DNA of 61,707 nt, filler included, from Candidatus Omnitrophota bacterium (GTDB lineage Bacteria; Omnitrophota; Gorgyraeia; Zapsychrales; JBDRMG01): NCBI GenBank assembly GCA_043812495.1. It is 6 parts of 6 records of this genome, joined end to end, with 100 filler letters (N's around TTAATTAATTAA, not from the genome) between each part and the next. Parts side by side here need not be neighbours in the genome. Positions count along the whole stretch, not along the records: positions 1 to 10,085 come from JBDRMG010000042.1; 5 more parts are not named here. One strand, 5' to 3'. Shown here in pieces: positions 1-59,388 of the stretch; within the stretch, counting starts at the first letter, position 1; every line of letters starts with the position of its first letter. Made by a program: the position numbers and the translations under genes. The notes beneath the pieces were generated by a model. The model searched no databases, was not told the origin of the DNA, and was given only the letters and a program-made list of their open reading frames with translations.

Positions 1-2
1 GG

Positions 3-3000
3 ATATTCGGAATAGGAGAGGAAAATAAAGGCCGTGGGGTCTATGCCAACTATCCGAAAGTCAATGAAGTTAGAGATGGCAGATTGGTATATCCAGAAGA
101 ATACAAAGCGTTAAAAAGGATTGTTGTGTTTGCAGAAACACAAAGCGATGAGGAAACCGGCGATGTACGCAAAGACACGGAACTCTACGCTAACGTTGGC
201 TTATGGGTTTCTGTCGGAATGGTTATTATCGTTGCCTTGGTCATTCTTCTTGTGCTGGGGGTGAGGAAGTGGCTCAGCCGTCGTATCAACGCGCCGAATG
301 GAGTTTTAGAGGGCATCCGGGTATCAGGTGATCAGGGACTAGGGTACCCGGATATCGGGGTATTAGGGACAAAATATTTAATGGTTCGACGCGCTTCGCT
401 TGTGGTTCGACAAGCTCACCATCCCGAGCGTAGTCGAGGGACTCACCATGAATCTCTGTGGAGATTCATGTTCCGTCCCGGATATCCAGATTCCCCGGAT
501 AACCCAGTGCCGCCCCAACTAACATATCTAAACGTAGAGGGAGAAATAAATAGTACGCAAAATATAGTTGGGGCGGCGCTAGTCCCTAATACCCGGATAA
601 CCAGATCACTGATTCTACATATACTATTACTCACCCTTCTCGCCGCGGCCGTTGGTTTGGTCCTCGCTCACGCGAACATATCCATCCAAGAATTCTTGTT
701 TGGTTCCGGCGTGATTTGCGCCGGCATCGGTTTAGGACCAATTTCTCTTAAAGAAACACGTACACGCACTTCCCGGGTAGGAACCAAAGACGCTCAAGCC
801 TTCTTAAGGGCAAAGATTCTCCTTGCCCAAAGGAACAATCAAGCCGGATACTTTGAGAAGACCATCGCTCTTGTGACCACCCGCGGACTGCCGATCATCC
901 ATCTTCTTAGGGCAAGAAAAATGAGCGAGGAAGAACAAAAGTTATTCTACGAAAATGCCCTTTCCCTTTATGCTCAACTCATCGAAGCTCAGCTGTCTCT
1001 TGGCCGGTACCGGGAAGCGGCCAAGACCTCGAGAGAGGCTTGCCGCGTATTTCCAGAGAAGAATGCCAAAGGGTATGCCGCGATAGTTAAACTTCTGGTC
1101 ATTTGGGGAAATAGATTGCGGAAAAACAATGACCTTAAGGATGTCGAAAACCTCTTGGAAACAGCGGTGGAAATCGCGGGAGAAATACAGGTCAGCCTGA
1201 TCAGTATAAACTCCCTCGCGTATCTCTATAATCTAAACGGACGCTTTGAAGAAACCGTGAAGCTGGTCACCTCCCGCGGATTGCCGAACATCAACTTTCT
1301 CCGGGGACCGAGAATAGGCAGAGCGAAGATGGATAGGAGGCTGTTTGACAATAACGCCCTGTCCGTTTACATGGAATTTGTCAGGGCCCTGATGGGTCTT
1401 GGCTGGTACCAGGAAGCCGTCGCGTCTTTACAAGAAGCCCGCCGGGCATTCCCTAAGGATAATCCGCACTATAGTTATATTGCCGAGATGGTCATTAAGC
1501 AAACAAGGGATGAGAAAAATCTGGCGGATATCGAGTTGCTTTTGAAAACAACCCTGGGAATATCCGGGAAGCTTCCGATTCGCTTGACGTCTCTACGGCA
1601 TCTTATTCATTTCTATGTCGAACAAAACCGCCATCAAGAAGCTGCGCGCGACCTCCGTCAGGCCCTTGATCATGTCGCCCTGATGGATGAGACATTAGAA
1701 AGAGATTCAGAGGGATATGTATTTTACCTCAAGAATGTTATTGGATTATACGAGATAGCCGAGAAGGCGTATTTGCGTTTTAAGGAACACTATCGGGATA
1801 TCTACAATGATTATCGCCAATCCCCCATTGTTCAAGATATCGTATCCAGGCAGGCCCGCTTAAGAGCCCGTAACCATGCCCTGCCTAGTGGTGATTTTTC
1901 TGACATGAGAGCCGAGGCCTTGGCCCTGTTCGCGCGAGGCGCCTATAACACATCCGCCTATGACGAAGCTAGAGTGATTTTGATGGCCATCGACGAAAGG
2001 TTTCCTGACCGGCGGCTTAGCGGAGGCTGGACAGCCCAATGCTTCTTGGGAGAGATTGACCGATTAACAAAGTCTTCGCGCAATGGAATTACAGAAAGAC
2101 CGTCTAAAGAAAGCAAAAATGAATGGCCAAATTCCGTGAACGGCTTTATTTTTGCCGATATGCTTCTTTGGGGTGAGATATCGATCGGCATTGCCATGCT
2201 TGCGGCAACGATTCTAATCATTTTTTCGTGGCGTATAATGCAAGCGGTAAAACGTTTCATCAAGGAGATGGGTGGTTATTTTGCATTATTCACTGTTTTT
2301 CTGGTTGGCATTAGTCTGGTCAGCGCCTCATGGGCGATCATGATCTACAAAGATTGGACAAACATATTAGCCTGGTTTAATTCACAAACAGTCACTCGTT
2401 TCCTAAGCACCGCTGTTCTTGTTTTTGCTGCCATACTTGTTTGGAAAATAATTGACAGGAAAATTATGAAATGCTCTGAGTTAATATTTGCAGCAGAGAT
2501 TAGCCGGCTAGAAAAACCAATCGAGCCTCAAACCTATCATGAAGCCTTTTATGTTAAGTCGGCATTGAAAAAATTTCTCTCTTTTGGCTATTTAACCGCG
2601 CCCCATTTGGATAAGAGCGCATTAACGGATATCTTCTATGAAGAATTGCAGAAAACCTATGTATTAGAAAGATGCTGGCTTCTTAAGAGAGCTCCTCCGC
2701 TGGCATGTCTTGTTCCCGCGCGTGAAGGAGTGCCTTTGCGATTAACCATAAAGAATGTTTTCTTTATTCATGTCGAGGTTGACTATAGAGCGTATCTCAA
2801 CCATGGCTCAAAGACGCAGCTTGAGTATTTATCCAAAATACGATTGACGCATGGCCCGAGAGATTCCATTATTCTTGTTGTTTTCTTGATCCTCTTGATG
2901 TATGCATTTGGCAATGTATTGCTCATTCCACTTTACTATGAAGTTGCCCACGCACTTGGCCATGATGTGTCCATGTACTATCATGCGGAACTAAGATTAT

Positions 3001-6000
3001 TATTTGCGCTTTTTGCCGATTTATTCCTAACAGTTGCGCTCTGTGCTATGTCAGCAAGATATGCGCTAAAAGTAAGAAAGATTTTTGCTGACTATACAAT
3101 AAAATACCGACCAACAGCCGCAAGATTCTGTTTCCCATTTCCTGCCAGCGCAATGCCACTTTTCTGCCTAATAGTGATTAATATGTTTTCCTTGATTTTC
3201 GCTTATTTTGGGATAGTGAGTGTAAAACTTGCGCTAGCGTGGCCCTACATTGTTTTCTTTTTGTTCATGGTGTCTGTTCTAAGATTTTGTCAAAGAATCT
3301 GGCAGATGCGAAAACAGGAAAAATGCGAATCAATTTCGGATAATCTTCCCGGATTACGCCGTCCGCCTGTTACCAGAGTTAAGATGATAACAGTCCTCAG
3401 GGACATTCCCGGGGCGAAGAACTCACACAACTTACGCAAAGGAGACCGTTTTATCCATCGGCCAACATCACAGTTTGCCAGTGCGAGGCTTAACGTGTAT
3501 GGCTTATCGGCCCGAATCTTTGAAAAATTCCGAATACGCAAAATAAGCCGTTTCTTCATCGAGCGTATAAGAAACCATAAGCCTATGATTAACCGGTCAG
3601 CTCTCTATGTTGCTGAAGCCATCGCCGATGTTCCTGAAAAGACGCAGCGATCCTTGAAAAACAGATACCGGGCAAAACGCTATCTTACGTCCTTGCGCCG
3701 CTGGGTCCTTATTCCCATAACACTCGCGTTCGCTCTTATGCTGGCTTTCATCCCTGTGTGCATTCTGGATGCTGTCCGGCCCCATCCAAAGGCATTATCC
3801 GGTGAATTTGAAAAATCATTGGATAGGTGTCAGGGGTCATCATGCAAACGGTCCTATTATTATCGGCCGCATGTCAAAGTTTCTGAAGAGACCTCTGATA
3901 CTATTTTCACGGTTTCTAACCTGGATAATGAATTTTATTCAGGGTATATCGCGTCTGATTCCGATTCTAATCAATGGGTGAACCTTGAGAAATCTCCCCA
4001 AATGGGACGCGTGATCATACCCGATAGTGCCAGCACGCAGACACAAACCATCACCATTTTCAATCCTCCGGCATGGGATTACGCCCCATTTTATACTCCG
4101 CCGGGAATGGTGAGTCAGAGCCATTTTTATACACCAGGGGTTTCTCTTGATCCTTACTATTGGGCTTATCGTTTAAAGATCGACGGGGGTGTGGTTTCCG
4201 CAACATACACCCTGTCAGTGACTGACGATTACAAGCTCGTCTTCAACGAAGAAGAGCGCCAAGGGCTCCTTGAGCTTGACCAGGTGACACGGGACTATTT
4301 GGACCGGTATTTCGAAGGCGCCGTTGGCCTGCCGGACTACGGTGATTTTGAAACTGTCCGCTTATGGATAGAAGATTTTGCCCGCCGGAAATGGATGTAT
4401 TCTTCAGGTTCTCGCTGGATCTGGTATTGGGCGTGGAATGAATATCAGCCTGTGATGAAGGCCAGCCTCCCTGCACAACAGGATAAAACCATCGGCCTTC
4501 AGTGGGGAGGTTTGGCTTTTAACGGGTATAAATTATCGCGTTATTTCGGCGTGCCGGCGGTTGCCTATTTAGGTTTTCAAAACAGCAACGAAGATCTCGC
4601 GCTCACAAACGACGAAGACCACATGATTTTTGCCATGTATAACGATCAGACGCAGAAATTTGAGAATGTCGATTTAACAAAAAATGTTTCTCACGATGAT
4701 TCCCGTCTTTCATTCAACATCGAGACATTGATCAGAATTCTTGGCGGGGCCGTCATCGCGCTGATTCTTTTGCCTTTGATTTTTGCCACGAGAGTTCTGC
4801 AAAGAAGATGGGCCAATATCAGCGGTCTTCTTCGAAAAGCAAAAATCGGTGAAGTCGCCAAAGACAAGACTCCCGAGCCTCAGAGCGCGGCGGGCAATTC
4901 ATCTTGGCGCATGCTGACCTTCAGCCAATGGATCGCGGCCCTGGAGAAATTGAGAGAACTCTATGAAGACTACCGGGGCAAAACAAGAGGAGGGCTTCAT
5001 CAGGGATGGTGGGAGGCCTGGAAAGCATTCGAGACGCAAAGACAGGACGATGCCCTTTCTCTCAGTGTATCGCTGTATCGTCTGCTTGAGGATGGTAAAG
5101 TTCGCCTTGAACCGGTCGCAAAACAGGAAAAGACAGCAAGCTATGCTTCGGTTGATGTGCGCACAACCTTCTATCGGAATCCCATCAAGCTTATCATTAA
5201 AAGGAACGATGCTTACTTGGTTATCCCCGGGGTTAACGCAGTCCACGCGATTTCTCTCACGCAGCCGTTGGCCAAAAAATTGAATTCGGGAGTTTACGCG
5301 GTTGTTGCCGATCATTGGAAAAATGCCGGCAAAGACGATACTGACGCGCGGCATCAGTGGTTGGCTGATACTGGAATATCATCCAGAGAGCTCATTCCAA
5401 GCGCTTATGGATTGATCCTACCCGGCGTGACGGGTACCTTGGTCGAAGTGTTCGTCGTCGCGCTGCTCCTGGCCGGGCTTGGGGTTTTGGCGATAAGGTT
5501 TATCCTAAAAAGAAATCAGCAGAAACGCATCCGGGCAAAGAACGAGCAACTAACGATTGAAGCGGCGAATTTGAGCTACCTTGCCTACTCTGGCGTGCCT
5601 CTTGCGGAGCCTTTGCCCGAAAGATTATCCATTATTGCCGCCAATGAAAGTTATCGATTAAGAAGGAATGGCTGGACACCAGCGGAATCAGACGAAAGCC
5701 AGGAGCCCTCGCTTCCCGTGCGCCTCGCGGCCCAAGAGGAATTTGAGAGAGTTACCGAAGAACTTCATAAGGCTCGAGCCCAAGTGGCTGGCTGGTTTAT
5801 CTTCGGCATGCCGGTCTACGCGCTTGCCATCGGCGCCGTGATCCTCGCGATCCTGGGCGTTCTTCTTTGGCGCAAATCGGTCCTGGCCCAAGGGGAAAAG
5901 AATGCTGAAAACCGCATTTTCTGGTATGCGTGGCTTTATAAACACTATCCAATAACATTTATTATTTTAAATTGGCCTTTATTAACCATTATTGCATTTA

Positions 6001-9000
6001 CCATTTTCTGCATACTATTCAAGCGGCTTACGGGCTTTCTGAATTTCGAGACCTATATGATTTGCGGGGCACTTGGATTTTTATTTGGTGTTGTCATATT
6101 TTCAAAAGTGGTCGAGACAATATTCCCGCTTTATTTTCAGAAAAAAGACAAAATAATACCTCCGAAGATTATTGTTCTCGGAAGCCATACGCCCCTTGAT
6201 GCATATGTTTTTGTCTGCAAAATAATTGCGGTCTATAAAGGAATAAATGAAGGGGTAGCTCTCTCGGCGATTAGAATAAGACGGAACAATTCTGCAGAGG
6301 AAGTCACAATTGACATACCGTCTTTGTCAGATGAAATAATTTCCAAATCCACGGCCCGCGCTTTGGATTTGGCTTTGGAGAAACTTAAAGACACTTTGGA
6401 GAAAGAGTATTTCGCGAATCAAAACCTTGTGCTGAAATACGCGGAGTATTTGAGCCGGTGGGAGCTTCTGATAGGCCCTGACGATGACACGGCAAATGAC
6501 GACAGTGAACCAGTGTCCTCAAGGAATCAAAGCCTGACATCGGATACGGTTTCTTCTTTAAGAAGCTTCGGGCCGGTTGCGCTGGCGGCCAGCGTTGTTC
6601 TGGCTGTCCTCCTGGCCGGGCTGGGGATTTTGGCCCGCCGCTTCGCGTCGAGGCAGGCGTCAATCTTGCAAATGAGAAGAAATAATCAGGATTTGGGAAG
6701 AGGCGACTTAAGAGACTTGCCGCTTTTGTGGAGTGATTCGAGGACTTCCTTTGGCGATAGTTTACGCCACTTACTCGATAGTTCTTCGCGGATTTTGTGG
6801 AGTTCTTTCATAAATTTAGGTTCCCTATCTTTCATTTTAGACCTCCTGAGGAGAACAAATGTCAACTTGAGGGTAATTCAAGTGTTGATTAATTTCATTA
6901 ACCCGGACGCGGGTATGGTGCCGAACAATATGTTTAAAATTCCAGCTCACAAGAATTGGAATATTATGAACAGAGGCCGTGGCGATATGAATGGCATCGG
7001 GCAAATATCGGTCCGGAATAATTCCTTCCTTAACATATCGGTGAGCCAAATCCTGAGCTTCTTGAGTCGCCGGCAGTATTTCCATAGAGTATTCTTCAAT
7101 GATATCTATAAACGATTGTCGTTTTCTCCGATTCTTGGTTTGCTCTATTTCGGCAACGACCAATTCCGAAATACAAATTACGAAAGGAGCTTTACTGGCC
7201 AGCTCAAAGAAATCTCTCGTCGCTTGTTTAATCCGCAAAGCATCATCAGCAAACATTCCGCTAATAACAGACGTATCAATGTATATCCTCATGGTTTACC
7301 TCATTTCAATATTATATTAGGACACACGAGAAGTCAAGGGGAATGCGTGGCTATTGGCGGTTGGATTATTCCAGGTGTGCCCGCCTCGGCCCCACTAGGT
7401 TCATTTGGGCTCAGCGCTCACCTCACGGCGGAGCCGTGGGGGGCCGGGTTAGGCGTGCTGGTCGCGTTTGTCCTCGGCGCTGTGGTCCTTGCCGCGGTCC
7501 TGGGCGTTCTTCTTGTGCCGGGCGTGCGGAAATGGCTCGCCCGCCTCATCAACGCGCCGAATGGAGTTTTAGAGGGCATCCGGATATCAGGTGATCAGGG
7601 ACTAGGGTACCCGGATATTGGGGTATTAGGGACAAAATATTTAATGGTTCGACGCGCTTCGCTTGCTCACCATGAATCTCTGTGGAGATTCATGTTCCGT
7701 CCCGGATATCCAGATTCCCCGGGTAACCTAGTGCCGCCCCAACTAACATATCTAAACGTAGAGGGAGAGATAAATAGTACGCAAAATATAGTTGGGGCGG
7801 CGCTAGTCCCTAATACCCGAATAACCAGATCACCGATTCTACATATACTATTACTCACCCTTCTCGCCGCGGCCGCTGTTTTTGGCGCTCATGTTCTCTT
7901 TAATCTATCCGGATTGATAGTTGCTTTCGGCATGGTCGAAGAAGGAGACAGCCGCCTTTCGGAGGGCATCTTGGCTTCCGGCGCCAAGCCAAAAATCCTT
8001 CTCGCTAAAGACAACGATGTCAGCAGGAAAATCTTCGCAGAGTTTCTTGCATATAGGGGATTTCAGGTCATCAAAGCGTCCAACGGGAAGAAGGCATTAG
8101 ACGCATTCTTAGCTGATTCTGAAAAAACATTCCAGATTGTTGTAACCGATTACAACATGCCCTGCATGGATGGCGCTCAACTTGTGGCTGAGATCCGAAA
8201 AACGGATCCACTTATTCCGATCATTATGGTAAGCGGAAATATTGATATAGTGAAGAAGGAAATTACTCAAGTCGTGACCTTATTTCTGCGAAAGCCCTTC
8301 GACCCTGCAGATATCGTAGAGCATATTAGAGGGATTTTAAGCGTCAGGCAGGAAGGGAATCAGAAAAAAGAGGATAGTGACCCTCTCTATGGCTGGATTT
8401 TCTTATCCATGCCGACATTATCCATAATGCTTCCAGCTGCTGCGGTATTCCTTATTCTCAACAAGACCCTCCACCCGCGCAAAATAATGAATAACCTCAA
8501 TGATCTTGTTCAAGAACAATGGACAAGAAAATACTGGAGCTGGGGCAGTTTGGTTGTCTATTTACTTGCTTATACAATATTTGGCGCGTCTTACATGGCC
8601 ATAGCTACTTACTTTTTCGGTGGTCTATCTTTAGGCTTATTCGGCATTAATCTCAAATCCCTTGGAACGATCAAAACTATGGAAATTAGTATTATTATTT
8701 CTATAGTTGCAGCTATTTTGCATGCCTTGGGTCATATTAATATAGGTCCATACTTTTTAAATCAATATAGAGAAAGAAAAAGAACAAACATACAGAAATT
8801 AAAAGATAGAAGGCTAACCGTTCGTGTCGGTCCATATGCTAATCTCATCGCAGGTTTATTATACTTCCTTTATGTATTGATTCTTTCATCGCATTTCACA
8901 AAGAGTGCCCGCTATGAAACTTACTTTGGTATGTTCATTAATTTAGGTATGTTCCTTGGATTTGCAGTGCGTGCATCGAATGATGGAAGAGCCATATCAG

Positions 9001-10085
9001 CTTTGAATAGGCAAATTGAGGAGGAGGACAGCGATCGTTCTAATGAATCGTCCCTTGCCGGTTTTGGCCTCCTGTTGCCTTTGGGTGCGGCGGTTGTCCT
9101 CCTCGCCGGGCTGGGGGTTTTAGCTTATAAAATGTTCTCAAGGAAATCTTCGGGGGATGAGGCGCGGGTAAATTTTGATGCTGATTTGAGGAGTTCTTTA
9201 TCGCGGGAGACGAGGACGACATTGTCCATGGATGAGGCGATGGCGACGAGCAATGCATCAAATGGAGAAAAGGGGTATTCGTCCTGGAGGCTGTTTGCCT
9301 TTAAAAGATTAACCTCATCGGGCACGATGATCTTGAGCAATTTCATGATTTTGGCAATATCTTCTTTGATCTTGCTTTCGTCAAAATTCTTCTTACGCCT
9401 TAGCACAAAGCGGATTTCTAAAAGACTGACCAAAGCGGCAGATCCTTTTAGTTTGCCTTTCTCGATAAATTCAATGATTTTATGGGGTGATTCCCAGAGT
9501 GGCTTGCCGGATGCAGGATCTTCCTCTTTGGTAAGCCAATTGATGATGACATCGCTGTCAAGAAGGCAAGCGGTAAGAAGCGGATTATTTGACTTTGCCA
9601 TAGAGAGAGTTCCTCAAATTTCTGATAAACTCGGTCGAAGTGCTATCCTTGGGGACGATTCCTTTGTATTTTCCGAGAAGTTCATCGGCAATTTTGGTCT
9701 TTCCGTTGCCTCTTTTGTTGGGAATGATCTTAATCGATTGAATGGCTTCAATAGCTTCCTGCAAAGTTGTCATTTTGATAGCTCCTTTTGTAATGAGTCT
9801 AGACCATTTTCTGATGAAAGTCAAGCCGCTTTGTCTTTCCATGGCTTATTAGGACCGGGCATTATTATCTTTATCATCGCTGTATTTGGCCTTGGTGTTC
9901 TGGCTATTGGTTACTTAGCGGTGCAGAGAGAATGGCTTGTAAGACTCATCAACGCGCCGAATAGAGTTTTAGAGGGCATCCGGGTATCAGGTGATCAGGG
10001 ACTAGGGTACCCGGATATTGGGGTATTAGGGACAAAATATTTAATGGTTCGACGCGCTTCGCTTGCTCACCATGAATCTCTGTGG
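3..10085 (+). CDS. Giant modular multi-pass membrane polyprotein, partial at both ends (>3300 aa): TPR block, membrane/transglutaminase-like block, receiver domain, M50-like block, translated repeats and antisense-read TA cassettes
   Basis: The frame is open from base 3 (IFGIGEENKGRG...) through the TTG at 84 to the contig end. It contains recognisable domains: TPR-like helices ~800-2070, REC ~7990-8345 (IVVTDYNMP..DG, MVSG, RKPF) and M50-like ~8480-9030 (HALGH, GPYAN, NDG). Hydrophobic linkers recur throughout. Confidence 0.8.
285..651 (+). repeat. 328-bp intragenic repeat, copy 1 (carries a 39-bp insertion)
   Basis: Near-identical to 7548-7875 and 9948-10085; encodes INAPNGVLEGIR...LLTLLAAA; contains internal inverted repeats. 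Confidence 0.95.
403..441. repeat. 39-bp REP-like palindromic insertion (TGGTTCGACAAGCTCACCATCCCGAGCGTAGTCGAGGGA)
   Basis: Present in repeat copy 1 and absent from copies 2 and 3; exactly 13 codons; forms two imperfect hairpins. Confidence 0.8.
6686..6835 (-). CDS. Small (49 aa) putative antitoxin downstream of the PIN gene, nested antisense in the giant ORF
   Basis: Translated by hand: MKDREPKFMKELHKIREELSSKWRKLSPKEVLESLHKSGKSLKSPLPKS*. The ATG is 1 nt after the PIN stop, with a GGAGGT RBS in the PIN 3' end. Too short for the ORF track. Confidence 0.65.
   Translation of the reverse strand: MKDREPKFMKELHKIREELSSKWRKLSPKEVLESLHKSGKSLKSPLPKS
6837..7292 (-). CDS. PIN-domain (VapC-like) ribonuclease toxin, nested antisense
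   Basis: Motifs IYIDTSV, AEI, DAIHIA, LVSWNFKHIV and C-terminal ICSPQEV; GAGGT RBS at 7298-7302. Confidence 0.85.
   Translation of the reverse strand: MRIYIDTSVISGMFADDALRIKQATRDFFELASKAPFVICISELVVAEIEQTKNRRKRQSFIDIIEEYSMEILPATQEAQDLAHRYVKEGIIPDRYLPDAIHIATASVHNIPILVSWNFKHIVRHHTRVRVNEINQHLNYPQVDICSPQEV
7309..7337 (-). promoter_or_regulatory. Sigma70-type promoter of nested TA operon 1
   Basis: TTGACT (7337-7332), 17 nt, TAATAT (7314-7309); an overlapping TATAAT lies at 15-nt spacing. Confidence 0.6.
7548..7875 (+). repeat. 328-bp intragenic repeat, copy 2
   Basis: Direct repeat of 285-651 without the 39-bp insertion; few substitutions. Confidence 0.95.
9125..9601 (-). CDS. PIN-domain (VapC-like) toxin, nested antisense
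   Basis: Acidic motifs LLDSDV, LLE, FDALLVA and SRD; start overlaps the upstream small gene. Confidence 0.85.
   Translation of the reverse strand: MAKSNNPLLTACLLDSDVIINWLTKEEDPASGKPLWESPHKIIEFIEKGKLKGSAALVSLLEIRFVLRRKKNFDESKIKEDIAKIMKLLKIIVPDEVNLLKANSLQDEYPFSPFDALLVAIASSMDNVVLVSRDKELLKSASKFTRASSPEDFLENIL
9585..9773 (-). CDS. Putative antitoxin (62 aa, MTTLQEAIEAIQ...STEFIRNLRNSLYGKVK), nested antisense
   Basis: AGGAG RBS at 9782-9786; the 3' end overlaps the PIN start; the C-terminal 'S-x-E-F-I-R-x-L-R' resembles VapB-type toxin-binding tails. Confidence 0.7.
   Translation of the reverse strand: MTTLQEAIEAIQSIKIIPNKRGNGKTKIADELLGKYKGIVPKDSTSTEFIRNLRNSLYGKVK
9796..9824 (-). promoter_or_regulatory. 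Sigma70 promoter of nested TA operon 2
   Basis: TTGACT (9824-9819), 17 nt, TAGACT (9801-9796). Confidence 0.7.
9948..10085 (+). repeat. 328-bp intragenic repeat, copy 3 (cut by the contig end)
   Basis: Matches the first 138 bp of copy 2 with 2 substitutions; the contig ends inside it. Confidence 0.95.
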
Positions 10086-10185
10086 NNNNNNNNNNNNNNN
10101 NNNNNNNNNNNNNNNNNNNNNNNNNNNNNTTAATTAATTAANNNNNNNNNNNNNNNNNNNNNNNNNNNNNNNNNNNNNNNNNNNN
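10086..10185. other. Artificial contig linker (also at 30268-30367, 34771-34870, 47515-47614, 59288-59387)
   Basis: N44-TTAATTAATTAA-N44, which places stops in all six frames. Confidence 0.99.
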
Positions 10186-10326: not shown

Positions 10327-10352
10327 GGGACGTTGATGATAGTATTACACTA

Positions 10353-10381
10353 TTGACGGAAAGCAGATCAACTGTTAATAT
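10353..10381 (+). promoter_or_regulatory. Sigma70 promoter for RAYT, probably giving a leaderless mRNA
   Basis: TTGACG-N17-TAATAT with a TG extension; the ATG is 6 nt downstream and there is no SD. Confidence 0.55.
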
Positions 10382-10387
10382 GTCCGC

Positions 10388-11383
10388 ATGCCACGTCAAG
10401 CTCGATTGGATTATCCGGGCGCTCTCCACCATGTGATTGCCCGCGGAATAGACGGTATCGAGATTTTTCAAACAGAAAAAGAAAAGCAAGCCTTCCTCTC
10501 TCGCCTTAAAAAACGCCTGTCTGAAAGCAATCTTCAAATTTATTCCTGGTGCCTCATGGACAATCATTGTCATTTGTTGATCCAAACCGGAAAAACATCG
10601 CTTTCAGAATTTATGCAGTCAGTCTTAACGGGTTATGCCGTTTTTTATAATAAAGCTCATAAGCGCAAAGGATATGTATTTCAGAATCGATATAAATCCA
10701 TTCTTTGCCAAACGGACGAATATCTCTTGCCGCTCATTCGCTATATTCACTTGAATCCTGTTAAGGCCAAGGTTGTGACTTTTGACAATCTTGCTCAGTA
10801 TCTCTGGACGGGGCATAAGGAGTTGATCCAAAATTCAAAAGAAGGAATTATTAATTCTCTTGAGGTCTTAAGGTTTTTTGGCACAAAACAGAATGAAGCG
10901 AGAAAGGCCTACCTCGAATATTTGAGAAATGGTCTGAGCAGCCAAGAAGATTTTATGGGGGGAGGGCTCATCAGGAGCCTGGGAGGGATAGAAGCAGCGC
11001 AGCGAATAACTAAAGAGGAAAGACAAAATTATGATGAAAGGATTTTGGGAGAAGGGAGCTTTGTGAACGAAGTTTTGAGCCGGTTGGAAATAGTAACGGA
11101 AGAAAAAAGAAAGATATTTAAAGATATCGATGAATTATTAGAACGGTTAGAGCGTTATTATCATGTTAAGAAAGAAGACATTTTGAGAGGTCAAAACAAA
11201 AAAGTGCGGGAAGCAAGAAATGTTTTGGTATATTTGAGCAATGCCTGTTTAGGAGAAAGCTTAACAGCGATAGGGAAAATACTCAAAATTAAACAGTCCT
11301 CAGCCAGTAGGGCTAAGCGGAAAGGCCAAGAGGTTGCGGCTCAAAAGGCCATTCTTGATCAATTGTTAGAAGATAGAAGATAG
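10388..11383 (+). CDS. REP-associated tyrosine (Y1/HUH, IS200-like) transposase with C-terminal DnaA-like HTH
   Basis: N-terminus MPRQARLDYPGALHHVIARG; HUH motif in MDNHCHLL; FQNRYKS; YIHLNPV catalytic Tyr region; helical C-terminal HTH. Confidence 0.9.
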   Translation: MPRQARLDYPGALHHVIARGIDGIEIFQTEKEKQAFLSRLKKRLSESNLQIYSWCLMDNHCHLLIQTGKTSLSEFMQSVLTGYAVFYNKAHKRKGYVFQNRYKSILCQTDEYLLPLIRYIHLNPVKAKVVTFDNLAQYLWTGHKELIQNSKEGIINSLEVLRFFGTKQNEARKAYLEYLRNGLSSQEDFMGGGLIRSLGGIEAAQRITKEERQNYDERILGEGSFVNEVLSRLEIVTEEKRKIFKDIDELLERLERYYHVKKEDILRGQNKKVREARNVLVYLSNACLGESLTAIGKILKIKQSSASRAKRKGQEVAAQKAILDQLLEDRR

Positions 11384-11515
11384 GGGACGTTGATGATAGT
11401 ATTACATTATTAAATAGCATGAGAAGGCACGAGCTATTCAAAAGAAATCAATTCACCCGATGCGTCCCCTGAATACTAAACTATCATAGAATCATCAACG
11501 TCCCCTGCTAGGACG

Positions 11516-12060
11516 TCAACGTCCCCTGCTAGGAAAACCCCCGTATTCCAGAAGATTTTCCAAAGCATGATTGGCGCTTGGTTTGCAATCAAGAATGTTA
11601 AGAATAAACATACAGGCGCCTTTAGTCATATTAAGATCAATTTCCGGATTTCCACATGACTCCCTTAGGGTTAAGGGGAACAAATGGAAGGTAAAATACC
11701 GCCCGGAAAGGCTATTCCCGGTTCTTCCGGAGATGTCTATTTTTGCCGAACCTGCTACGATGAACTGATAGCGGTTCTCTGCTTCATCAGAAATCCCTTT
11801 AAGGATGTTCTTCCATTTTGGCATTTTATAGATCTCATCAAAACAATCCCAATGCCTTTTTTGTTTTGATGGGGAAGATCTCGCGTAAAGAATAATTCCT
11901 GTTGTTTGTAGCGTTCCCGCACCGTTCGCAGGTCCCATAGATAATACAGTTGCTGTGTATGTTATTGGTTCAGCTTTTCTTTAGAAAGGGTGGTCTTAAC
12001 GGATTGACGAGAACCGGTCACGAAGCGCATCTGCCGGCCCCATTGACGGGAGAAAGCAAT
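11516..12060 (-). pseudogene. Frameshifted, truncated AAA+ ATPase (AAA_14/DUF4143-type)
   Basis: Fragments in different frames: GRQMRFVTGSRQSVKTTL (degenerate Walker A), LYYLWD, FDEIYKMPKWKNILKG, VAGSA, SLSGR, LLEYGGFP. It ends abruptly at a REP copy. Confidence 0.75.
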
Positions 12061-12723
12061 CGAGAATAATGACCGCTGGATTATATGACTAATTTATAAT
12101 ATCGTTTAAAATAGTCAAGGATATTTAATGGTATGATTTAAAATGGTCAGATATTCTGGATGCTGAGAAGAAAACGAACAGAGGACAAAAATGGGGACGT
12201 TGATGATTATATTACATGAACAGAAATCCTGAAAAAGCATAAACTAAAAATCAGTCATCAACGTTCCAAAATAAGGGATTTTTCAATAAGCGCTTGAGTT
12301 ATTCAATGAAATGACAGACAAAGCCACGCGAATTTATGTGGACTGAACAATAATGAGCGAGGGAGCTAAAAAATACAAAACCCCCGATGCTCTCATCATC
12401 ATTTGCAATTTCCAGAAGTATCATGAAGTCATCAACGTCCCCTAAATATTAAATGTCCAGAATAAATTTCTATGAACGAGAAATGTCCACTCTGTGATTT
12501 TTTATCATCTGGTAGATGAAGGTGAATATTCTTGTGTATTGGTTTTGAATTTTATGCGCGAAATAAATCATTTGCTAGGCAGATTTTTATGTAAAATTTA
12601 AGAAAATCTCCTCGAAAAACCAATTTTCAGAAAAAATAAAAAAAATTTTTTAGAAATTTTCTAAGATAATTGTAACCCCCTTTATTTTCATATCTTATGT
12701 AATATCCAATCAGTCCTGTTTCC

Positions 12724-13117: not shown

Positions 13118-16100
13118 ATGTTTAACAGACTGGACAAATACAACAATCTGGATTCTGATGACTCTGACCGTTTTGATGAATATGACGGTTCTAAGGGTTC
13201 TGATGACTCCGGTTTTGACGGTTCTGATGACTCCGGATTTGATGGCTCTGATTTTGAGCCGGAAAAACAGCCGCAAGAGCAGGAGCCTTTTAAGAGCCGC
13301 TTCAAATCCTGGATCAGAACCGCTGCCTTGATTGTTGTCCTGGTTTTTGTCCCCGAACAAATCAGCTGGGCTATTAATTATAATCCTTATGTGCTGCATA
13401 AGCGCCAGGCGGCTCACTATGTCGATCCGGATGCCTCAAAAGAAGACCTGACGTCCGCGCGCATTGCCGGCAATGTCGAATATTTCCTGCGCCAAATTTC
13501 CTATCAACAAAACCCCGAACTTCGCTTAAGACTGACCAATAATAATCTCTCCGGAGCCGAATCCGATTCAACTGCGCCCTCCATTTTGATCACCTCACAG
13601 CGGTTCTACACGGACCGGGAAATCGACACAATTTACAACTGGCTGCGCGAACCGAGCATCTACCCCTTAAACTGCAGTATCTACGCCCTCAAAGACATTC
13701 TCACAAGCCATGAGATTGACACAACCCTGGAAGAACTTTCCGTGGTCTCATTGCTTGCGGATTTGATGAATGACATCATCCGCCCCGGTGAGCCGAAACT
13801 CAAGACTTCATTGTTTGCCATCAACGAAGTGGCCAAGGCTTATGGCCTCGATTATAAAGCCCTGAAAGTCCTTCCGTATGAGCTTTGGACCATAAAGACG
13901 CCTTTTATGGCCAACTTGAAAAGCGAGCACTTTGTCATGGTCACAGGCATGGATGAAGAGAATGTCTATTACACCGATATCGGCCAGGCCAAATTTATGC
14001 CCAGAGACGTGTTTAGCAATGAATTCAGCGGTTTTGTTTTGGCTCCGCCTTCCGACAATCTTCAGGAGGCCCGGCTGGTTTCAGAGTCCATGATGGCCTT
14101 TGTCTGGGGCTCGCAGTACCGCCACCGTGAAGGTAATCTGCCCGGTCTGTATACGAATTCGGACATGCTTGCTTTTGGAGCTATGACAGCACTTTCCTTT
14201 GCCATGTCAGTAGATATGAACCAATATTTCGTTCAATCGGGCGCGAACGAACTTTTTGGTGCATTCGCCGAATGGAAAGTGGCCACTGGAAAATGGGATG
14301 TGGATGATGCCGCCTTGTTTACAACGGTCGGAAGCAGCGCGGTTGGAATGGGCTACAAAGGATTCAGCAAACCACAAACAGAAATACCATATGCTCCTTA
14401 CTCCACAGGCCAGAAAATCGGCCATATGTTTGAAGGCATGGGCATCGGCGGCTTGGACGGTTTTTCGAAATATTACTTAAACAAATTAATTATTGATCCG
14501 GTTACAGATAAGATTACGGAAAGACTTGATATCCATTCGGACATTGTTAATCAGGGAATCAAGATGTTGTTAACCCGGGCGATTTCCGCTCCCCTGAGAA
14601 TAGCTTCGCTTAAAATGATTGATTTTGCGGGTGATAAGCTGCTGCCGGGATTTGATAAAGGGTGGTATCAGGATTGGTGGGCTTCAGCCGAAATAAAAGA
14701 CGGCCAGCAGGTAAAATTTTCAGACATGGGCTTGTTTGACAGCATGTGGAGCGAATTCAGCTCTCCCGACAACTTGACCTCCATGCTTTATACGGCAGGG
14801 AGCACGACGGTCCAGTATTCTTACAAACAATTGATTGATCCCGATTATGACCCCTCAAAAGATCTTTTGGCGGGCGCCCTGATGGATTGGACCATCATGG
14901 AACTGTCGGAGATGGGTTTAAAATACCTGGCGCCGGATTATTATCGGCAGATGAAAGAAGAAGAGAACAAAATTAGAGAAGATGCAAAAAAGCTGGGCAA
15001 AGAAATAGGCGCGACCGGCTGGAAACTCCTGGCCCAGAAAGGCCTTAAGGTCATGGAATTAAGCATCATCGCCCTGGCCTATCAAAGCCTCATGAGAAAA
15101 TATGTTAAGACAAGCAAAAACGACGACAAACCCTTTACGCCCATGGAATTTCACGCCCTCGCGTTTTTTACCACGTCTTTGGCCTCGGGAACCATCGGCG
15201 CTCTTTTGGGCAGGGAAGATGACACGAGCGGCGGTGACGTAGAAGATCCAAGCTTTTTCAAGAAAGTATGGTCCAATTTCTCTGTTGAATTATCCAACAT
15301 GTCCAACAGTTATTTTTCGTATGCCGGGTCCGCGCCCGCGGCCGGGCAAGGCTGGAAACTTCAGGATTGGGACCGATTCATCGATAAGTCCGTTGAGTTT
15401 ACGGGCTTTACGCCGGAGTTCGCCAAACAGATGAACTCCACGTATGACATGATGAAGCGGCAGAACGCCATTTCCTCAGACCCCAAGTCGGACGAAGAAC
15501 TGGACAGGCAATTTAGACAGTTGGTCATGGATTCCCTCAGCGCAAGCAGACTCAACGCGGCCACCTACATGTTCCAGGAACTGGCCAAGGCAAGTGTCCA
15601 CAATTTTTATGACGGCTTGAGCTTCGTCGGAACCCGCATTGCCGGCAATCATTTCAGCCCCCACTGGATGGGTCTGGATAGTCGCTTTTGGAATAAAGGA
15701 AAAATTAATTCAACGGGCACGGCCGAAAAAGAGGCAACAAAAGTAGTCATGTACACCCTGGGCGTCCAGCCGGTCGGCTCATTGATCCAGATTCACTATA
15801 ACGTCTCGGGCTCATGGAATCCCAGAAAAATCGCCGCGCCGATCGGCATGATTTTTGACCCCCATGAAGAGACTTCCGGCCGGGAAACTTCCGGCGGCGG
15901 GCCCGGCTTGCGGCTATTATTAAGCACAGGCGTCGAAAAGAAGATTTTATTCAGAAACGAGGAAGCAGGCGATTCTCTCCAAAACGGATTTCAAGAAAAA
16001 TTTCAGCTGAGCACCGATTCCTCGTTTGCCTCAAGCCAGGAGTCATCGCTCGCTTCCAAGAAACGTCTATTCATCAAATACTTCAGCGAAAGAGAGAACA

Positions 16101-19100
16101 ATATCCGAGGCTGGGCCAAGTATGATTTAAGCCTCAACCCGCCCAAAGGATTGGATGAAAGATTCGCGGCCAAGGGAATATCAGAAGGCGGAACGATCGT
16201 GTCCTATATCTATGATCTTAACGATCCCCGAAGCGCCCAGGACAAATCGCATGAGCTCAGCAATCTCATTTTGCTTGGGCCGCAGGAAAGAGGAAAACCC
16301 TCCTTCTTTATTTTTTCCCAAGAGACGGACGCCGGCCTGGAAAAAATAGGCGACCTTTCGGTCGTCATGAACCATGAATTCAAAGACGGCAACACACTCG
16401 CCTTGAATTATCAGAAAGTACGAATGGTCGACGGAAGTTCGGTCATTCTCTATAACCGTTCGGCCGGCCAAAAAGGCAAAGACGCGAGCGCCTATGTGAA
16501 CCTGATGGTTTCCCCGGCCGACTTTGCGGCCAAGGCCATGGCGGGCCAGGGATTTTCCATTCATCTGTTTAATCTGGACGGCAATATCATCATGGCCAAA
16601 GCGGGAAAGACCGGCGGAGAAAATGACGAGTCAGGCACAACCATCAAAATGCCGGCTAACGAAATCGACCTTACATTTCCCAACGCAAACGGGAATAATA
16701 TCAGCCTGGCTTTACTCTCGAAAATGTTAACGGACAATAAGAATCAAGAGTTCCTTGCCCTTGCAAAGGAAAAGGAATTCTATGGCCGTCTTAAAGAAAA
16801 CCCCGAGTTGTTGCTGGCTTCCCTTGATACGTCAATTTCTCGTGAGGTGTGGGAGAGTATATGGAGCTCCGAAGAATCTAAGAAAAAGCAGCCGGACAAT
16901 TACTACGCCACTCGAGGCTCCAAGTATGGCGAAATCCTGATCGAGAATGAAAACGGAGACATAGAAAAGCTCGACCTCATGGACGTGCTATTCAGCTTCT
17001 CCGAAGGGAAAAATCCACAAGGTCTTTTGGTGGGCTCTTTGGGTCTGGATTTTCTGGGCGTGGCCAAAAACGGCGCGAACGTTTCTGTTTACGCGAGCGG
17101 GGACTATCTTAGGGAAAATTTTGGGGAGAACTATCGTCAAGGCGCCGAAAACGCTTTGCAGGGGCCGACCGCTCAAGCGGATCCGGATAGCCTCAATATT
17201 AGAGTGGATGATCCCAAGGGTGACGTCGGCGGTTTTGAGCAGGATCAAGAGAACGATAAATTCGCCTGGCGTTTGAGAAAGGCCGGTGACCAGGTCTATT
17301 TTCACGGCCCTCGGCTGAGTCCTCTCGAGGACCCCATGGGCGTGCGCAACGAAAACATCGCCCGGCCCTACTGGAAAGCGGGATTGGTGTATAAAAATGA
17401 AATGCCGCATGGCGCCGAAATGACTTTACCCGTAGGTCTGGATCAATACGGCAGTTTATCTATCGCTCAGATTACCAAAGTGACGGGTAAAGACGGAACA
17501 AATTCTTACAAGGTTTACAATCCTGAAACAAAACAAGAAGAAACAGTCCAGACCACCGACGAATATCTCCTCCAGCTCGGCCGCACCGCCATGAATATCG
17601 GCGGAAGCCAGGTGGTGGATCATTTTATTTCCTACGGCCGCTCCTCAGAGCGCGAAGAAAATCTCGAATTTAAAGGCAAGCATTTATCTTTAGGTTTTGG
17701 AAAAGGCTTTGTCAAAGTCGCGGACAAAAGCCTCAGCGAAGATCAAACCCAAATCGTTGAGAAGCTGTCGATGCCTCAGATGAAAGGCGCAACCTATGGG
17801 AATAATTTCATCGACGGCCGCCATATGGACAGCAAAGAAATCACCGATGGCTTTAAACTTAAGAAAAATATCGTCTCCAACGAAAGCCTGAAGCGCGCGG
17901 TCACAGGCCTCAATAGAGAGTACTCGGACATCTTAGAAAATCTTCTCATGCAGGCCTCTGATATCGACGAGAACGCGGGTATCGATGACCTTCGCCAGAA
18001 AGCCGGGGCCATCGATGAAGCGACCGCGAGCGCGGATGAGTTGAAATTTAAAAAAGCCGTTGGCCAGCTGTCCGGGGCCTGGGAGAATAAAGATTTTCAA
18101 AAAATCGAAAAGTTTTCAACGCGTTTTGATTCTGACAAAGATCAGAATGACAGGGAAGACAAAGACGCGTTCCATTTCAGCCAAGAAGACCAGGATAAAA
18201 TAGATCAGTCCATCAGCGATTATAAGTCCAAGAAAGCCGCCGGCCAATTATGGGGCGCGACGGATATCAATGTCATCACAAAAGCCATGTGGAATCTCGG
18301 CACGGAAGACAGAGAAAAAGTTCAAAAAGCCCTGGCCGACGAAAGATACCGCAGCGTTCCCTTGGTGATTGAAGGCGACTGGGTGGACCGCTCTCATGAA
18401 GACCAGACAGATTTCAGCTTTGTCACGATCAAGGCCACAACGTATAACAAAGACGGAATTCCCAAAGAAGTTGTCCTGAGGGATCCCCGTAAATATGCCA
18501 AGAGTCTGGATTTCGTCATTCCTGAATCGGGGCTTTACGTCACGGGTTCCGACGGGGAGCTTAAGGATTTTGCCGGTTCGCCGGACGGCGAATATACCAC
18601 CTACTCAGGCCGCATGGAGTTCACCATCGACGGCAATTCCCCGTCCAATCTCAAAAGCCATCAGTTCACGCCCGGCGCCTATTGGAAGTTGCCCGCGGTC
18701 GCCGGCAACGCCAAAGACGGAGATTTCAACCGCTACATGACCCGCGACTGGAAGTGGTCATCGGGTAAAGGCGCCCAAGGCGCTATCTATGTGGATTTAG
18801 CGGGCCGCGCCATCGGCGAATTCGGGGTCGGCAAGGATACCGTGTCCAGGCTGCCCTTTATCAGCCAAAATGTTTCGTCCCGAACGCAAAGAACACCCAC
18901 ATACCTCCTCGTTCTGCTCATAGGAGCGGATCCTCAAATATTGGAGGAGCAGAATGTCGCAAGTCTCCTTAATGCCGAAGGAGGTCAAGAGGTATTGAAT
19001 AAATTGGGTGAGTACTTAAGGAAAATCGGTGTCAGCAAAGTTGATGTTGAATTGGCCAAACAGAGCTTAAAAGCAGGCGAATACGATAAATTTTATTCAG

Positions 19101-22100
19101 ACTATTACACGCAAGAAGTCCGTCAATCAACAGGACTTGATCTTTCCGGCGATAAAGACAAAGCCTTTTTGCTCGCGGAACATTCCGCCAAAATCAAATA
19201 CGGCGGCGATTTTCTCTGGAAGCGGGGCGCGGCATGGACGCCGTACCACGGATTCGATAGCGCCGGCGGCCTGTCCAACAATGACGGAACCAAGCCCTAT
19301 ATGCTCGAAACCATGTACACACTCGGCAAAGACGGGCGGAAAAAGATTGTCTACCAAGAGAAAAATTCCGATATCGACATCATCCTCGGACCTTACCGCG
19401 ATCCCATTCTCGTGGCCGATCACCTGACAAACTTTTCCTTTGTTGCCGCTGGCGAAGGGGAATCTGCGCTTCACCAAGGCACAGTGCAGGTTGAAGCCCT
19501 TAAGGATGGGCAGGGAAACGACATCACGCCTTTTTTCAATAAATACACAGCCATCGCGACCGGCGAAGACCAAGATAGCGTGGCCCCGGGCAAATTCGTT
19601 TTGCAAACGGGCATGATCAGAGAAGACGGTTCTGAGCAGATGAACGTGGACCAGGTCTTTGCGGCCCGCAGGTACATAACAACGGAAAAAGGCGCGTATC
19701 TGGGCCTGCCGGGTCTGGGCTTAAGAAAATATTCACCAGGCGAAAAGGGCGGTCCTGTTATCCATTATATGCCCCAGGCCACGGCAGACGGGCAAACAAT
19801 TGACGTGCCCCTGGTTCTTGAGGGAACCAAAGAAGAAACCGTCTTTGGCGAGCTTCACGCGGGCATTGTTCCTGACGATTACAAGGAAGGAAAATACAGC
19901 GGTTCAGTGTTCTTAAAAAGTTTCGCCAAAGGCAGCTCGTTCACCCGCGGCGAGAATAAAGGCTTCGCTATCAATGGAGTTATCGTCGGTTATAACGGCG
20001 CGGATATTCCGGATGAAGGAACCGAGGTCAGCGTTTCGCCTCTGATTATCTCTGATGGGGGAAAAACCCACGCCCTCGCCTATTCCGGCCAAAAGGGCGG
20101 GTATTGGTCGAAAAAAGATGAGTCCTGGATTCATCAGTGGGCCAATGAGGCAGGTGATAAAAGCTCGTTCGATGTCGCCGTTCGCAATATCAACACCGGA
20201 GACGCTGATCCCGACAAATCAAAAGGTCTTGAGAGCAAATTTCCGGAGAGCGTTGATAAAGAATTAAACAAACCGGAAAACCGGTATATCCATTCCAACA
20301 TCACGTTAATGAACAATGAGCCAAAACGCTCATTTACATTAAGCGGTGTTAATTACGACGTGCATAAAGCTCAAATAACCAGCTTGTCGGCTTATGATTC
20401 TTCCTTCGGATCCATTGCCTCGCCGGGTGCGTTTATTCTTCCCACCAAAGCGGGCATAGTCAGCGGCGGGGTTACGCAAACAGTCAGCAAAGAGGCTGCC
20501 GATAAAGCCCTGGCGGGCTTAACACAAAGACTGTTTGACCCAAGCGAAAATTACGAAAAAATTCAAGAAGCAATCAAGAATATCGAAACATTTATTTCAG
20601 AGTCCACGTTAAAAGACGGCCAGTATTCTTATCGCCACGGAAAAGAAGGCAAGCCCTTTGATCTCAACGGCATAAAGCTGTTTAAAGGAAATGACGACGA
20701 CCAGGCCGGACTTTATTTCGACGGCAAAAAAATGTATGCCCTTGTCGGCACGTGGTTGAAGCAGGAAAGCGTGACCGATCCGAGCAAGCCCGAAATCGGC
20801 AATTTTAAGGACGGCCAGCCTATTGATCCCAGCAAGCCGTGGACAGAGACCTTCGGCAAAACGGAAATGGTCGGAAAAATCATTGATGAAGGCGTCAATC
20901 AATTTGCCTACAAGAGCCAATTGCGTAACCTGACAACCATCTCGCATAAGGATCAATATGCCGCGGACCAGTCGGCCGAAACGGCGAGAAATACCATCGA
21001 TGCCCTTCCAAACCAATCACCCCTCATGATTGCCTTGGATAATATGGGATTGCTTGAACTCTCCCTTTCGAACAGCGACGAACTTCAATTGGATTCTGAC
21101 GCCACATTTGTTACCCCGAGCCCGGCGGCCCAAGATATGTCTTTAAATAAATTTGATAAAATGAGCAGAGACTTAACAGATGAGATAGCTTTGATATTCA
21201 CTGCTCCGGGTCAGGCGACTGACCTTCAAGACACGTCTCTGGAAGAATTTACGGAAATGAACAACGGCATATTAAATGAGATGGTTTCTATCGGCGAAGA
21301 GCATGACCGGCAAATCAACCAGAAAGTTTCTCATCCCGGATACGAAAATGGTCAAATCACTCAACATATCGAGGATTTTGCCATTGTCATAGGCAGTAAC
21401 GACACGCAAGATTTGATGACGCCCATGACGACCCTGAATGAAAACGGCGAAACCGTCACCACCGGCATGAGAGGAAATATCCATAAAATAGCATATATAC
21501 CTATTGAATTTACCTCTAAAGCGGCCGATGGCGCGGAAGGCACACTTGGCGCGGTCAGTCTTTTGCAGGGAAAAGACGGCTCTATGAATATACGCGCCAG
21601 ACAAGGCAAGTGGGTCACATACGAAAATCCTTATGATATAAAATCCAGCGAAGATGCCACCCAAAAAGCCTCAGACAGCATGACGGAGCATCCATCGGGC
21701 GGGGCTTCCCGAACAGCGGCTTACAGCTCAATTCGCGGATACACCATTCTTGATTTGGACAGAGATATCGGACCCGGCGGGGCCGTGGCGTATGACCAGC
21801 ACGGCAATGTTATGCCATTTGAGGCCTTTTCTCCTTTGGCTAACGGTTATTCGCCTCATTTAGATTTTTCCTACATCAATCCGTTTTCGGCCATCATGGG
21901 CGAAGGAAGCGTCGTCTGGCTTCCGGCAGGCGAATATTCGAGGGCCGCTGTTGATCAGGAAGTCAAAAACGCAGACGGGACCATTACGACAAAAAGAGAA
22001 GATAATCAAATCGTCAATTTGAATGCCGAAGGTTTTCCGCTGGGCTACAGGCTTAAAAGAGAAAAAGGAAATTTGGTCAGGGATTATTCCGACAGCGTGG

Positions 22101-30267: not shown

Positions 30268-30367
30268 NNNNNNNNNNNNNNNNNNNNNNNNNNNNNNNNN
30301 NNNNNNNNNNNTTAATTAATTAANNNNNNNNNNNNNNNNNNNNNNNNNNNNNNNNNNNNNNNNNNNN

Positions 30368-34770: not shown

Positions 34771-34870
34771 NNNNNNNNNNNNNNNNNNNNNNNNNNNNNN
34801 NNNNNNNNNNNNNNTTAATTAATTAANNNNNNNNNNNNNNNNNNNNNNNNNNNNNNNNNNNNNNNNNNNN

Positions 34871-47376: not shown

Positions 47377-47614
47377 TTTGATTTTCCCTTTCGAAAGGAT
47401 ATTAAATTGGGCCATTCTTCTTTATTGACTTTTTCTTTATTAAAGGAACGGTGGAAGTCAATATAAGGTCTTCTTTCTCGTATAGAGAAAATATTATTGA
47501 CTGTTCCATTAATANNNNNNNNNNNNNNNNNNNNNNNNNNNNNNNNNNNNNNNNNNNNTTAATTAATTAANNNNNNNNNNNNNNNNNNNNNNNNNNNNNN
47601 NNNNNNNNNNNNNN

Positions 47615-59287: not shown

Positions 59288-59388
59288 NNNNNNNNNNNNN
59301 NNNNNNNNNNNNNNNNNNNNNNNNNNNNNNNTTAATTAATTAANNNNNNNNNNNNNNNNNNNNNNNNNNNNNNNNNNNNNNNNNNNNG

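Follow-up and report, generated by a model that had tools for sequence, protein, structure and literature searches.

The window analysed here, 61,707 nucleotides from the Candidatus Omnitrophota bacterium assembly GCA_043812495.1, joins six unrelated contigs, and its positions 1-10085 are the entire contig C42 (JBDRMG010000042.1), with which we are concerned. C42 is part of a giant, membrane-threaded gene, and two toxin–antitoxin (TA) operons, TA1 and TA2, lie wholly within its reading frame on the opposite strand. Nested modules of this kind recur in the giant genes of this genome and of its relatives, with the giant frame open across them; their TA features are conserved, and insertions of other kinds into C42 keep the frame as well. 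We propose that the PIN operons are probably mobile cassettes that entered at membrane-anchor linkers and are kept by addiction, a penalty on block deletion being a by-product. The initial annotation had given the leading part to the direct repeats of C42, as joints for block shuffling with exactly one TA pair in each interval to penalise block loss.

The giant frame and its two antisense operons

The assembly amounts to 1.94 Mb in 66 contigs. C42 holds an internal piece of a giant open reading frame (ORF) on the plus strand (3..10085), 3,361 codons without a stop and open at both contig ends. Omnitrophota giant genes of the Archaeovorin type are described in two preprints (bioRxiv 10.1101/2023.11.21.568195; 10.64898/2026.06.07.730766) as exceptionally long frames that encode numerous membrane helices together with TPR and a variety of enzyme and signalling domains. 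The C42 frame has this architecture: it carries 21 hydrophobic segments, a response-regulator receiver domain (7995..8330, plus strand; E-value 6e-18) and a TPR-like region (894..1478, plus strand) with weak Pfam matches under the curated cut-offs, and its sister frames in the genome run to 25,094, 11,238, 11,223 and 7,525 codons. Contig C53, which bears the 11,238-codon frame, begins with the final 27 bases of C42, in frame; this is the sole exact end overlap found among the 66 contigs, with k from 21 to 127, and C53 likely continues the giant frame of C42. The joints within the window are artificial 100-base N spacers (10086-10185, 30268-30367, 34771-34870, 47515-47614 and 59288-59387), and ORFs or repeats touching them are artefacts.

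Short hydrophobic linkers punctuate the frame, all on the plus strand. LAGLG membrane-linker copies are found at 5459..5491, with no TA behind it, at 6602..6634, preceding TA1, and at 9092..9124, touching the stop codon of the TA2 toxin. Hydrophobic linkers also precede the second and third copies of the direct repeat (7455..7511 and 9846..9902), and the former is repeated at 207-275 and in C53, where no repeat stands behind it. The order of LAGLG linker, antisense TA, hydrophobic linker and repeat, as initially annotated, holds in both intervals.

TA1, on the minus strand, consists of a PIN toxin of 151 residues (6837..7292; Pfam PF01850, 42.1 bits vs a cut-off of 23.6) and a partner gene of 49 residues with a strong ribosome-binding site (RBS) (6686..6835). 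The latter is the presumed antitoxin, and it is homologous to the small genes downstream of the closest free-standing TA1 toxins (nine phmmer matches). The toxin gene comes first, and an Asn occupies the fourth acidic position, family-wide. Residues D6, E48, D99 and N118 fall in columns conserved in 94-100% of 105 homologues, and the toxin fits 29 of the 37 columns conserved at 80% or more in them. A promoter-like site with 9 of 12 consensus bases lies at 7308..7337 (minus strand).

TA2, also on the minus strand, has a PIN toxin of 158 residues (9125..9601; PF01850, 34.8 bits vs 23.6) and an antitoxin of 62 residues (9585..9773) that overlaps the toxin start and belongs to no Pfam or NCBIfam family; in the ESM Atlas it meets unnamed clusters alone (best 0.90). 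The conserved acidic residues of PIN toxins are catalytic, and in TA2 they (D15, E62, D115 and D134) are invariant in 28 aligned sequences. The partner gene is present in all six homologous loci. A TTGAC box marks the predicted promoter (9796..9824, minus strand), and all six nested TA2 operons have the box and an RBS-like word at an identical position upstream, the box being absent before the free-standing one. Promoter-like sites are no commoner in the region than in shuffles (6 vs 6.4), so the promoter calls are based only on position, for TA1 and TA2, and on conservation.

The complex predicted for the TA2 toxin and antitoxin reached 0.85, vs 0.00 for the best of three controls. Among solved complexes, 116 of 157 attain this mark, as do 2 of 215 mismatched pairs, and with the alignments used these counts apply only approximately; similarity to known VapBC structures may account for the pass. 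At least 86% of contacts are common to the runs, the partner has a predicted local distance difference test score (pLDDT) of at least 67, and toxin residues 15, 62 and 134 lie in the interface; the antitoxin is predicted to bind over the acidic site of the toxin. A sequence search of the PDB gave no significant match for either toxin.

Both operons look alive, judging from their sequences. A PIN domain, acidic residues, and a small adjacent partner conserved with the toxin mark TA1 and TA2 as putative type II TA systems of the VapBC kind. They share with VapBC pairs, including the TIGR00305 / VapB15-like ones, the two-gene operon, the PIN toxin with conserved acidic residues and the small partner; unlike them, they lie wholly within another frame on the opposite strand, TA1 has the toxin gene in first place and the Asn noted above, and the TA2 antitoxin has no named family.

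Nested modules in this genome and its relatives

Nine antisense TA modules lie in the giant frames of this genome. In addition to the two of C42, C53 has three (PIN with a VapB15-like gene; another VapB15-like gene, whose PIN is reduced to its last 25 codons; HicB-HicA), and C65 (PIN and partner), C63 (DUF4258-like and DUF2283), C19 (DUF433 and DUF5615) and C20 (HicB, and HicA with a stop) have one apiece. They come from a dicodon model applied to 856 antisense ORFs of at least 45 residues in 15 giant frames, together with family searches; Pfam was scanned with 150 of the 179 antisense ORFs of at least 90 residues in giant genes, all of which the dicodon model covered. A like search outside the giant genes found ParE, DUF433 and two HEPN genes, and the HepT-like and PemK families gave no match in this genome. 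Seven of the 11 toxin or antitoxin family matches genome-wide, from a family list that is not exhaustive, are inside giant genes, which make up 14.5% of the genome (binomial p 2.6e-4). In the 16 nested TA genes, giant-frame stops number 0, vs 30.7 expected from codon usage.

The same arrangement is seen in relatives, which are not independent samples. Among the matches listed for PIN_3 (30 loci, from 62 matches in 61 genomes), 12 loci lie inside an antisense frame that stays open across the full 1.9-3.4 kb (11 of 29 once the present genome is set aside), and among those listed for HicA (30 loci, from 52 matches in 41 genomes), 13 are nested in open antisense frames (11 of 28 without it). The VapB15-like antitoxin of C53 was found at 14 loci in 11 of the 168 genomes of the order, and all 14 are nested (11 of 11 without the present genome). 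Twelve loci, when extended to 12-20 kb, gave open frames of 4,025-6,647 codons.

Of the six distinct loci homologous to TA2 (a duplicate being counted only once), five are nested in the same phase, at 46-66% identity and in non-homologous surroundings. Nested homologues extend to another order of the class, and the two named records that hold them carry the depositor labels Omnitrophota and Planctomycetales. Third codon positions are the most diverged in both TA2 genes, and those of the antitoxin coincide with first positions in the giant frame; therefore, selection would act on the TA protein, the giant frame merely being kept open. It is likely that such selection has acted on TA2 while nested. 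The 80 metagenomic loci of TA1 homologues have a mean of 5.3 stops in the giant-frame phase, and 2 of them are short, GC-rich open contigs.

Inactive PIN proteins had been named at the outset as grounds for giving up the addiction proposal. The active-site residues are conserved in TA1 and TA2, and six toxins are broken or lost among the nested modules elsewhere. An intact nested toxin without its antitoxin is found at none of the 13 HicA-found loci and none of the 11 PIN-found loci whose contig extends over the partner position: the former all have a stop-free HicB match, and the latter an intact partner, the twelfth being cut by the contig end. Two related nested HicA genes, at C20:24893-25105 and in a relative (L184, G003:C8:11738-11905), have in-frame stops at different positions, that is, independent inactivation; the HicB of the latter genome may be short of its N-terminus.

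Some neighbours of these modules are worth recording. At one locus (L224, G028:C56:16363-19569), a nested VapB15-like antitoxin and a PIN stump are followed by two more antisense ORFs in the open giant frame, the second of which looks, by eye, like an aspartyl protease. At another (L045, G005:C8:3373-6624), a second antisense pair, with a toxin that is PemK/MazF-like by eye, adjoins a truncated TA2, and each antisense pair is preceded by a copy of a linker repeat of ~230 bp. Genes of other kinds are nested too. Two related coiled-coil genes (40% identical) lie antisense in giant frames at C53:3780-4130 and C65:24178-24498. Both halves of a single-copy IS630-family transposase lie antisense in the 11,223-codon frame (C20:8479-9487) with no giant-frame stop; clear ends of this element were not found. 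In the window itself, 13118-30267 is a separate giant frame of ~5,700 codons, open at the contig end and with a peptidase C39 domain near its start, in which no nested TA was detected.

The repeats of contig C42

The direct repeats begin at 285, 7548 and 9948, with spacings of 7263 and 2400, exactly as annotated at first, and their copies are 95-98% identical. The three copies are real; the uniform length of 328 bp is not. Copy 1, a palindromic element of nested structure through which the giant frame reads, is 374 bp long (285..658), copy 2 is 335 bp (7548..7882), and copy 3 (9948..10085) is cut by the contig end after 138 bp and, if C53 follows, measures about 260 bp with a 75-bp internal gap; all are on the plus strand. 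A palindrome of 39 bp, or 13 codons, resembling repetitive extragenic palindromes (REPs), is present in copy 1 only (403..441), and related sequence occurs in C21 and in unrelated contigs of all four sequencing runs. The 75-bp difference (net; 25 codons) is an insert between two CTAG (7728..7806 in copy 2, and 504-582 in copy 1) that is missing from the C53 part of copy 3. Both length differences are multiples of three.

The insert has the terminal inverted repeats, target duplication, and filled and empty sites of a miniature inverted-repeat transposable element (MITE). CTAG flanks it in copy 2 and in three other places, and the empty site in C53 is a single CTAG. Three longer copies, of net 95-97 bp, sit outside giant genes. 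The ends of the insert were not seen beside the IS630 gene of C20, the one transposase compared. Contigs from the sequencing runs (three DNA runs with a low share and a companion run, with patchy coverage) contain one joint, from 503 to 579, skipping 75 bases, which is the short form of copy 3 already present in C53. The same material shows a branch point away from the repeat: contigs from two runs are identical over window positions 1-140 and then diverge, and no second copy of these 140 bases was found in this assembly.

Copy 2 is predicted to fold much more stably than its shuffles (z of -5.1), and Rfam gave no match anywhere in the window, copy 2 included. In the closest relative, sequence similar to the outer arms of the repeat flanks a 23S_rRNA_IVP (four-helix-bundle) gene; there (L058, G001:C22:16450-16900), the arms run straight into the gene. 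Gene-less versions of the arms (C29:33485, C31:12304, C53:22428 and 23777) are intergenic or flank the nested HicAB pair on either side. A search of 60 relatives did not find the repeat in its entirety, and 10 of them have just fragments of 22-69 bp. The repeat thus consists of common palindromic elements nested at a membrane linker, the whole having been duplicated within C42's giant gene, and it would not be a dedicated partner of the TA.

The multiple-of-three spacing would, as initially annotated, lead to excision of blocks in frame. However, it is uninformative because the repeat has stops in five of its six frames and is open in one, and as evidence for design we reject it. Long repeat pairs in giant-gene contigs are in frame in 13 of 14 cases, the exception being a contig-end overlap. 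As had been proposed, each of the two intervals holds one antisense PIN operon, and the 284 bases before copy 1 show no TA (coding score of 0.24 for the giant frame vs -0.24 antisense); the sample is two intervals. Given five modules in the 44 kb of C42 and C53, the numbers expected in the intervals are ~0.8 and 0.3 by hand arithmetic. An enrichment of TA genes upstream of repeat copies did not bear out, for none of the other seven TA modules of this genome has this repeat beside it; a diverged relative of the repeat arms flanks the HicAB pair of C53.

Repeats of other kinds do accompany TA modules. Five of the nine nested modules of this genome, including the two of the window, lie between direct repeats at most 2.5 kb apart, vs 1.2 expected from random placement on the same contigs (p 0.0015), and so do 4 of 12 in relatives (0.65 expected, p 0.0014). 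In two bracketed modules, the flanking repeats are 100% identical, over 58 and 179 bp. Bracketing was also considered as a peculiarity of nested TAs and is rejected, as it is seen at 4 of 35 free loci vs 5 of 24 nested ones (Fisher p 0.46).

Two further transposases lie in the window. In the next contig, which is not joined to C42, positions 10327-12443 contain a RAYT-like Y1 transposase (10388-11383) flanked by copies of a 28-bp repeat and its inverted form. Positions 37939-39132 encode an IS4-like transposase (DUF4372 and DDE_Tnp_1), with a two-component system on one side and a heavy-metal P-type ATPase on the other.

Weighing the explanations

How would antisense operons come to lie in such a gene? 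The giant frame tolerates 200-300 residues of antisense-derived filler between hydrophobic linkers if it is stop-free, and TA operons, REP-like palindromes, a MITE and the IS630 transposase occupy such places with the frame kept open. We suggest that cassettes travel between giant genes already stop-free, probably via homologous recombination at the linkers, and that this would leave direct repeats around some of them. The nested operons would be transcribed from their own promoters, against the giant gene. Loss of a block would kill or arrest the cell unless the toxin were broken first, and, until a mutation hits the toxin, recombination across the repeats on either side would carry a penalty. 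To this extent, the initial proposal of joints and penalties survives: if two of the repeat copies crossed over, a block would be lost in frame and one TA operon with it, and both operons look alive. A design that pairs this repeat, or repeats generally, with TA genes is the part without support.

Several points weigh against the cassette proposal. Nested relatives of TA1 account for 0 of 29 loci in the order, and TA1 is therefore best regarded, from these comparisons, as a one-off capture. The adjacency of repeat and TA is explained only loosely: both TAs are 175-256 bp from a repeat copy, closer than chance placement by a hand estimate, and hairpins near TA modules give p 0.02. The PIN_3 tree of 21 proteins (10 nested and 11 free, with 10 weaker or partial loci excluded) shows clustering only, with 4 changes vs 7.2 when shuffled and 5 of 500 shuffles as low, and its inner branches are mostly weak. 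The TA2 homologues may have diverged before their capture. Any active TA, whether addictive or not, should show one-sided decay; moreover, toxins are longer mutation targets, and the decay loci overlap between searches. Finally, 7 of 13 giant-gene contigs are without any TA.

It is tempting to go further and to propose that resident TA lineages live only as stop-free antisense cassettes and act as entangled addiction locks, the whole being a superintegron-like array as a single protein; we put this forward tentatively, as a possibility with the odds against it. In the Vibrio cholerae superintegron (PMC13108822; bioRxiv 10.1101/2023.11.17.567518), TA cassettes with their own promoters reportedly keep the array stable, since cells from which they are lost are killed. 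The likeness to such a sedentary chromosomal integron (same sources) lies in several type II TA families, self-promoted and scattered in a long, repeat-punctuated, rearrangeable array. Unlike the superintegron, the array here is one fused frame overlapping TA operons, with no separate single-gene cassettes, and its repeats are of several unrelated kinds, all duplications of hydrophobic linkers and palindromes, with no TA in most pairs. The integron integrase IntI was not found in this genome, which is 90% complete (TIGR02249, best 89.5 bits vs a cut-off of 265); the recombinases met in that search are two ordinary tyrosine recombinases only. With no IntI and one continuous frame, an integron is rejected.

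Alternatively, the host itself might keep TA modules as stabilisers, a resident lineage being selected for protecting a costly repeat-rich modular gene wherever its repeats lie. The concentration of TA matches in giant genes, the VapB15-like/PIN family seen only nested, bracketing by close direct repeats beyond chance, and the Vibrio superintegron precedent all speak for this explanation. We nevertheless think it unlikely. Of 11 further long repeat pairs, with a length of at least 50 bp and an identity of at least 88%, none encloses a TA, the repeat-richest contig, C11, has none, and a 75-kb piece has a single one; toxins have been lost repeatedly, and non-TA genes and the IS630 transposase are nested likewise.

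Quite improbable, in our view, is a third explanation, in which the operons serve some other purpose, such as phage defence or dormancy, or are intergenic DNA that was swallowed and does nothing; the giant gene would then be a mere landing site that gains no stability. The linkers do hold typical intergenic material (REP-like hairpins, a MITE, gene-less cassette arms), and free-standing TA modules carry flanking repeats about equally often. Inert DNA, however, would not be expected to retain a promoter, an RBS and catalytic residues while its proteins diverge to 46-66% identity, or to lose its toxins first, and another purpose is compatible with addiction.

The arrangement originally proposed, in which the 328-bp repeats are joints dedicated to shuffling and every interval carries a single TA as its lock, we judge to be very unlikely. 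It is true of both intervals of the window, in the same slot, and between copies that are nearly identical and in frame. Yet these are two cases, the in-frame spacing is forced, no TA is seen before copy 1, and three more TA modules come after copy 3 in C53 with no closing repeat copy; the repeat, moreover, is a local nest of common palindromes, not found whole in 60 relatives. That the giant frame is untranslated here, or the contig an assembly artefact, hence with no true overlap, is scarcely credible: the low dicodon score (0.076 vs 0.27 in ordinary genes) would fit, but the stop-free frame is 3,361 codons long and has real domains, the 39- and 75-bp insertions keep it, the 16 nested genes have none of the stops expected, and exact contig pieces and the short form of copy 3 are present in independent runs.

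We return to the cassette proposal and to what is new in it. The class of nested TAs, their enrichment in giant genes, and a TA family found only nested are new here. No description of nested TA operons in giant genes was found in the literature searched, subscription journals and bioRxiv supplements being outside its reach. We know of few cases in bacteria in which entire operons with promoters are selected on the opposite strand of a gene; to our knowledge, this is rare. The terms "antisense", "opposite strand" and "reverse strand" are absent from the main texts of both giant-gene preprints (10.1101/2023.11.21.568195; 10.64898/2026.06.07.730766), supplements aside, and in the accessible part of the 2026 preprint (10.64898/2026.06.07.730766), TA genes are listed only among flanking genes and hypervariable loci. 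A precedent by design is the synthetic entanglement of relE inside ilvA, in which, according to the report, a toxin gene wholly within another gene prolongs genetic stability (bioRxiv 10.1101/2023.02.27.530340). Unlike that engineered, toxin-only construct, as described there, the arrangement here is natural and antisense, and comprises entire operons with promoter and antitoxin.

Nested TA operons thus recur across an order, and one TA family has been seen only nested. Standard gene callers report the giant frame alone, so the TA inventories of these bacteria are likely undercounted; in this genome, 7 of 11 family matches are hidden in that way. If the nested operons are addictive, they would be a natural counterpart of engineered toxin entanglement and would offer a testable answer to the question of how repeat-rich genes of 30-100 kb resist deletion. 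If entangled addiction locks are true, a repeat-rich gene of tens of kilobases could grow and shuffle without collapse.

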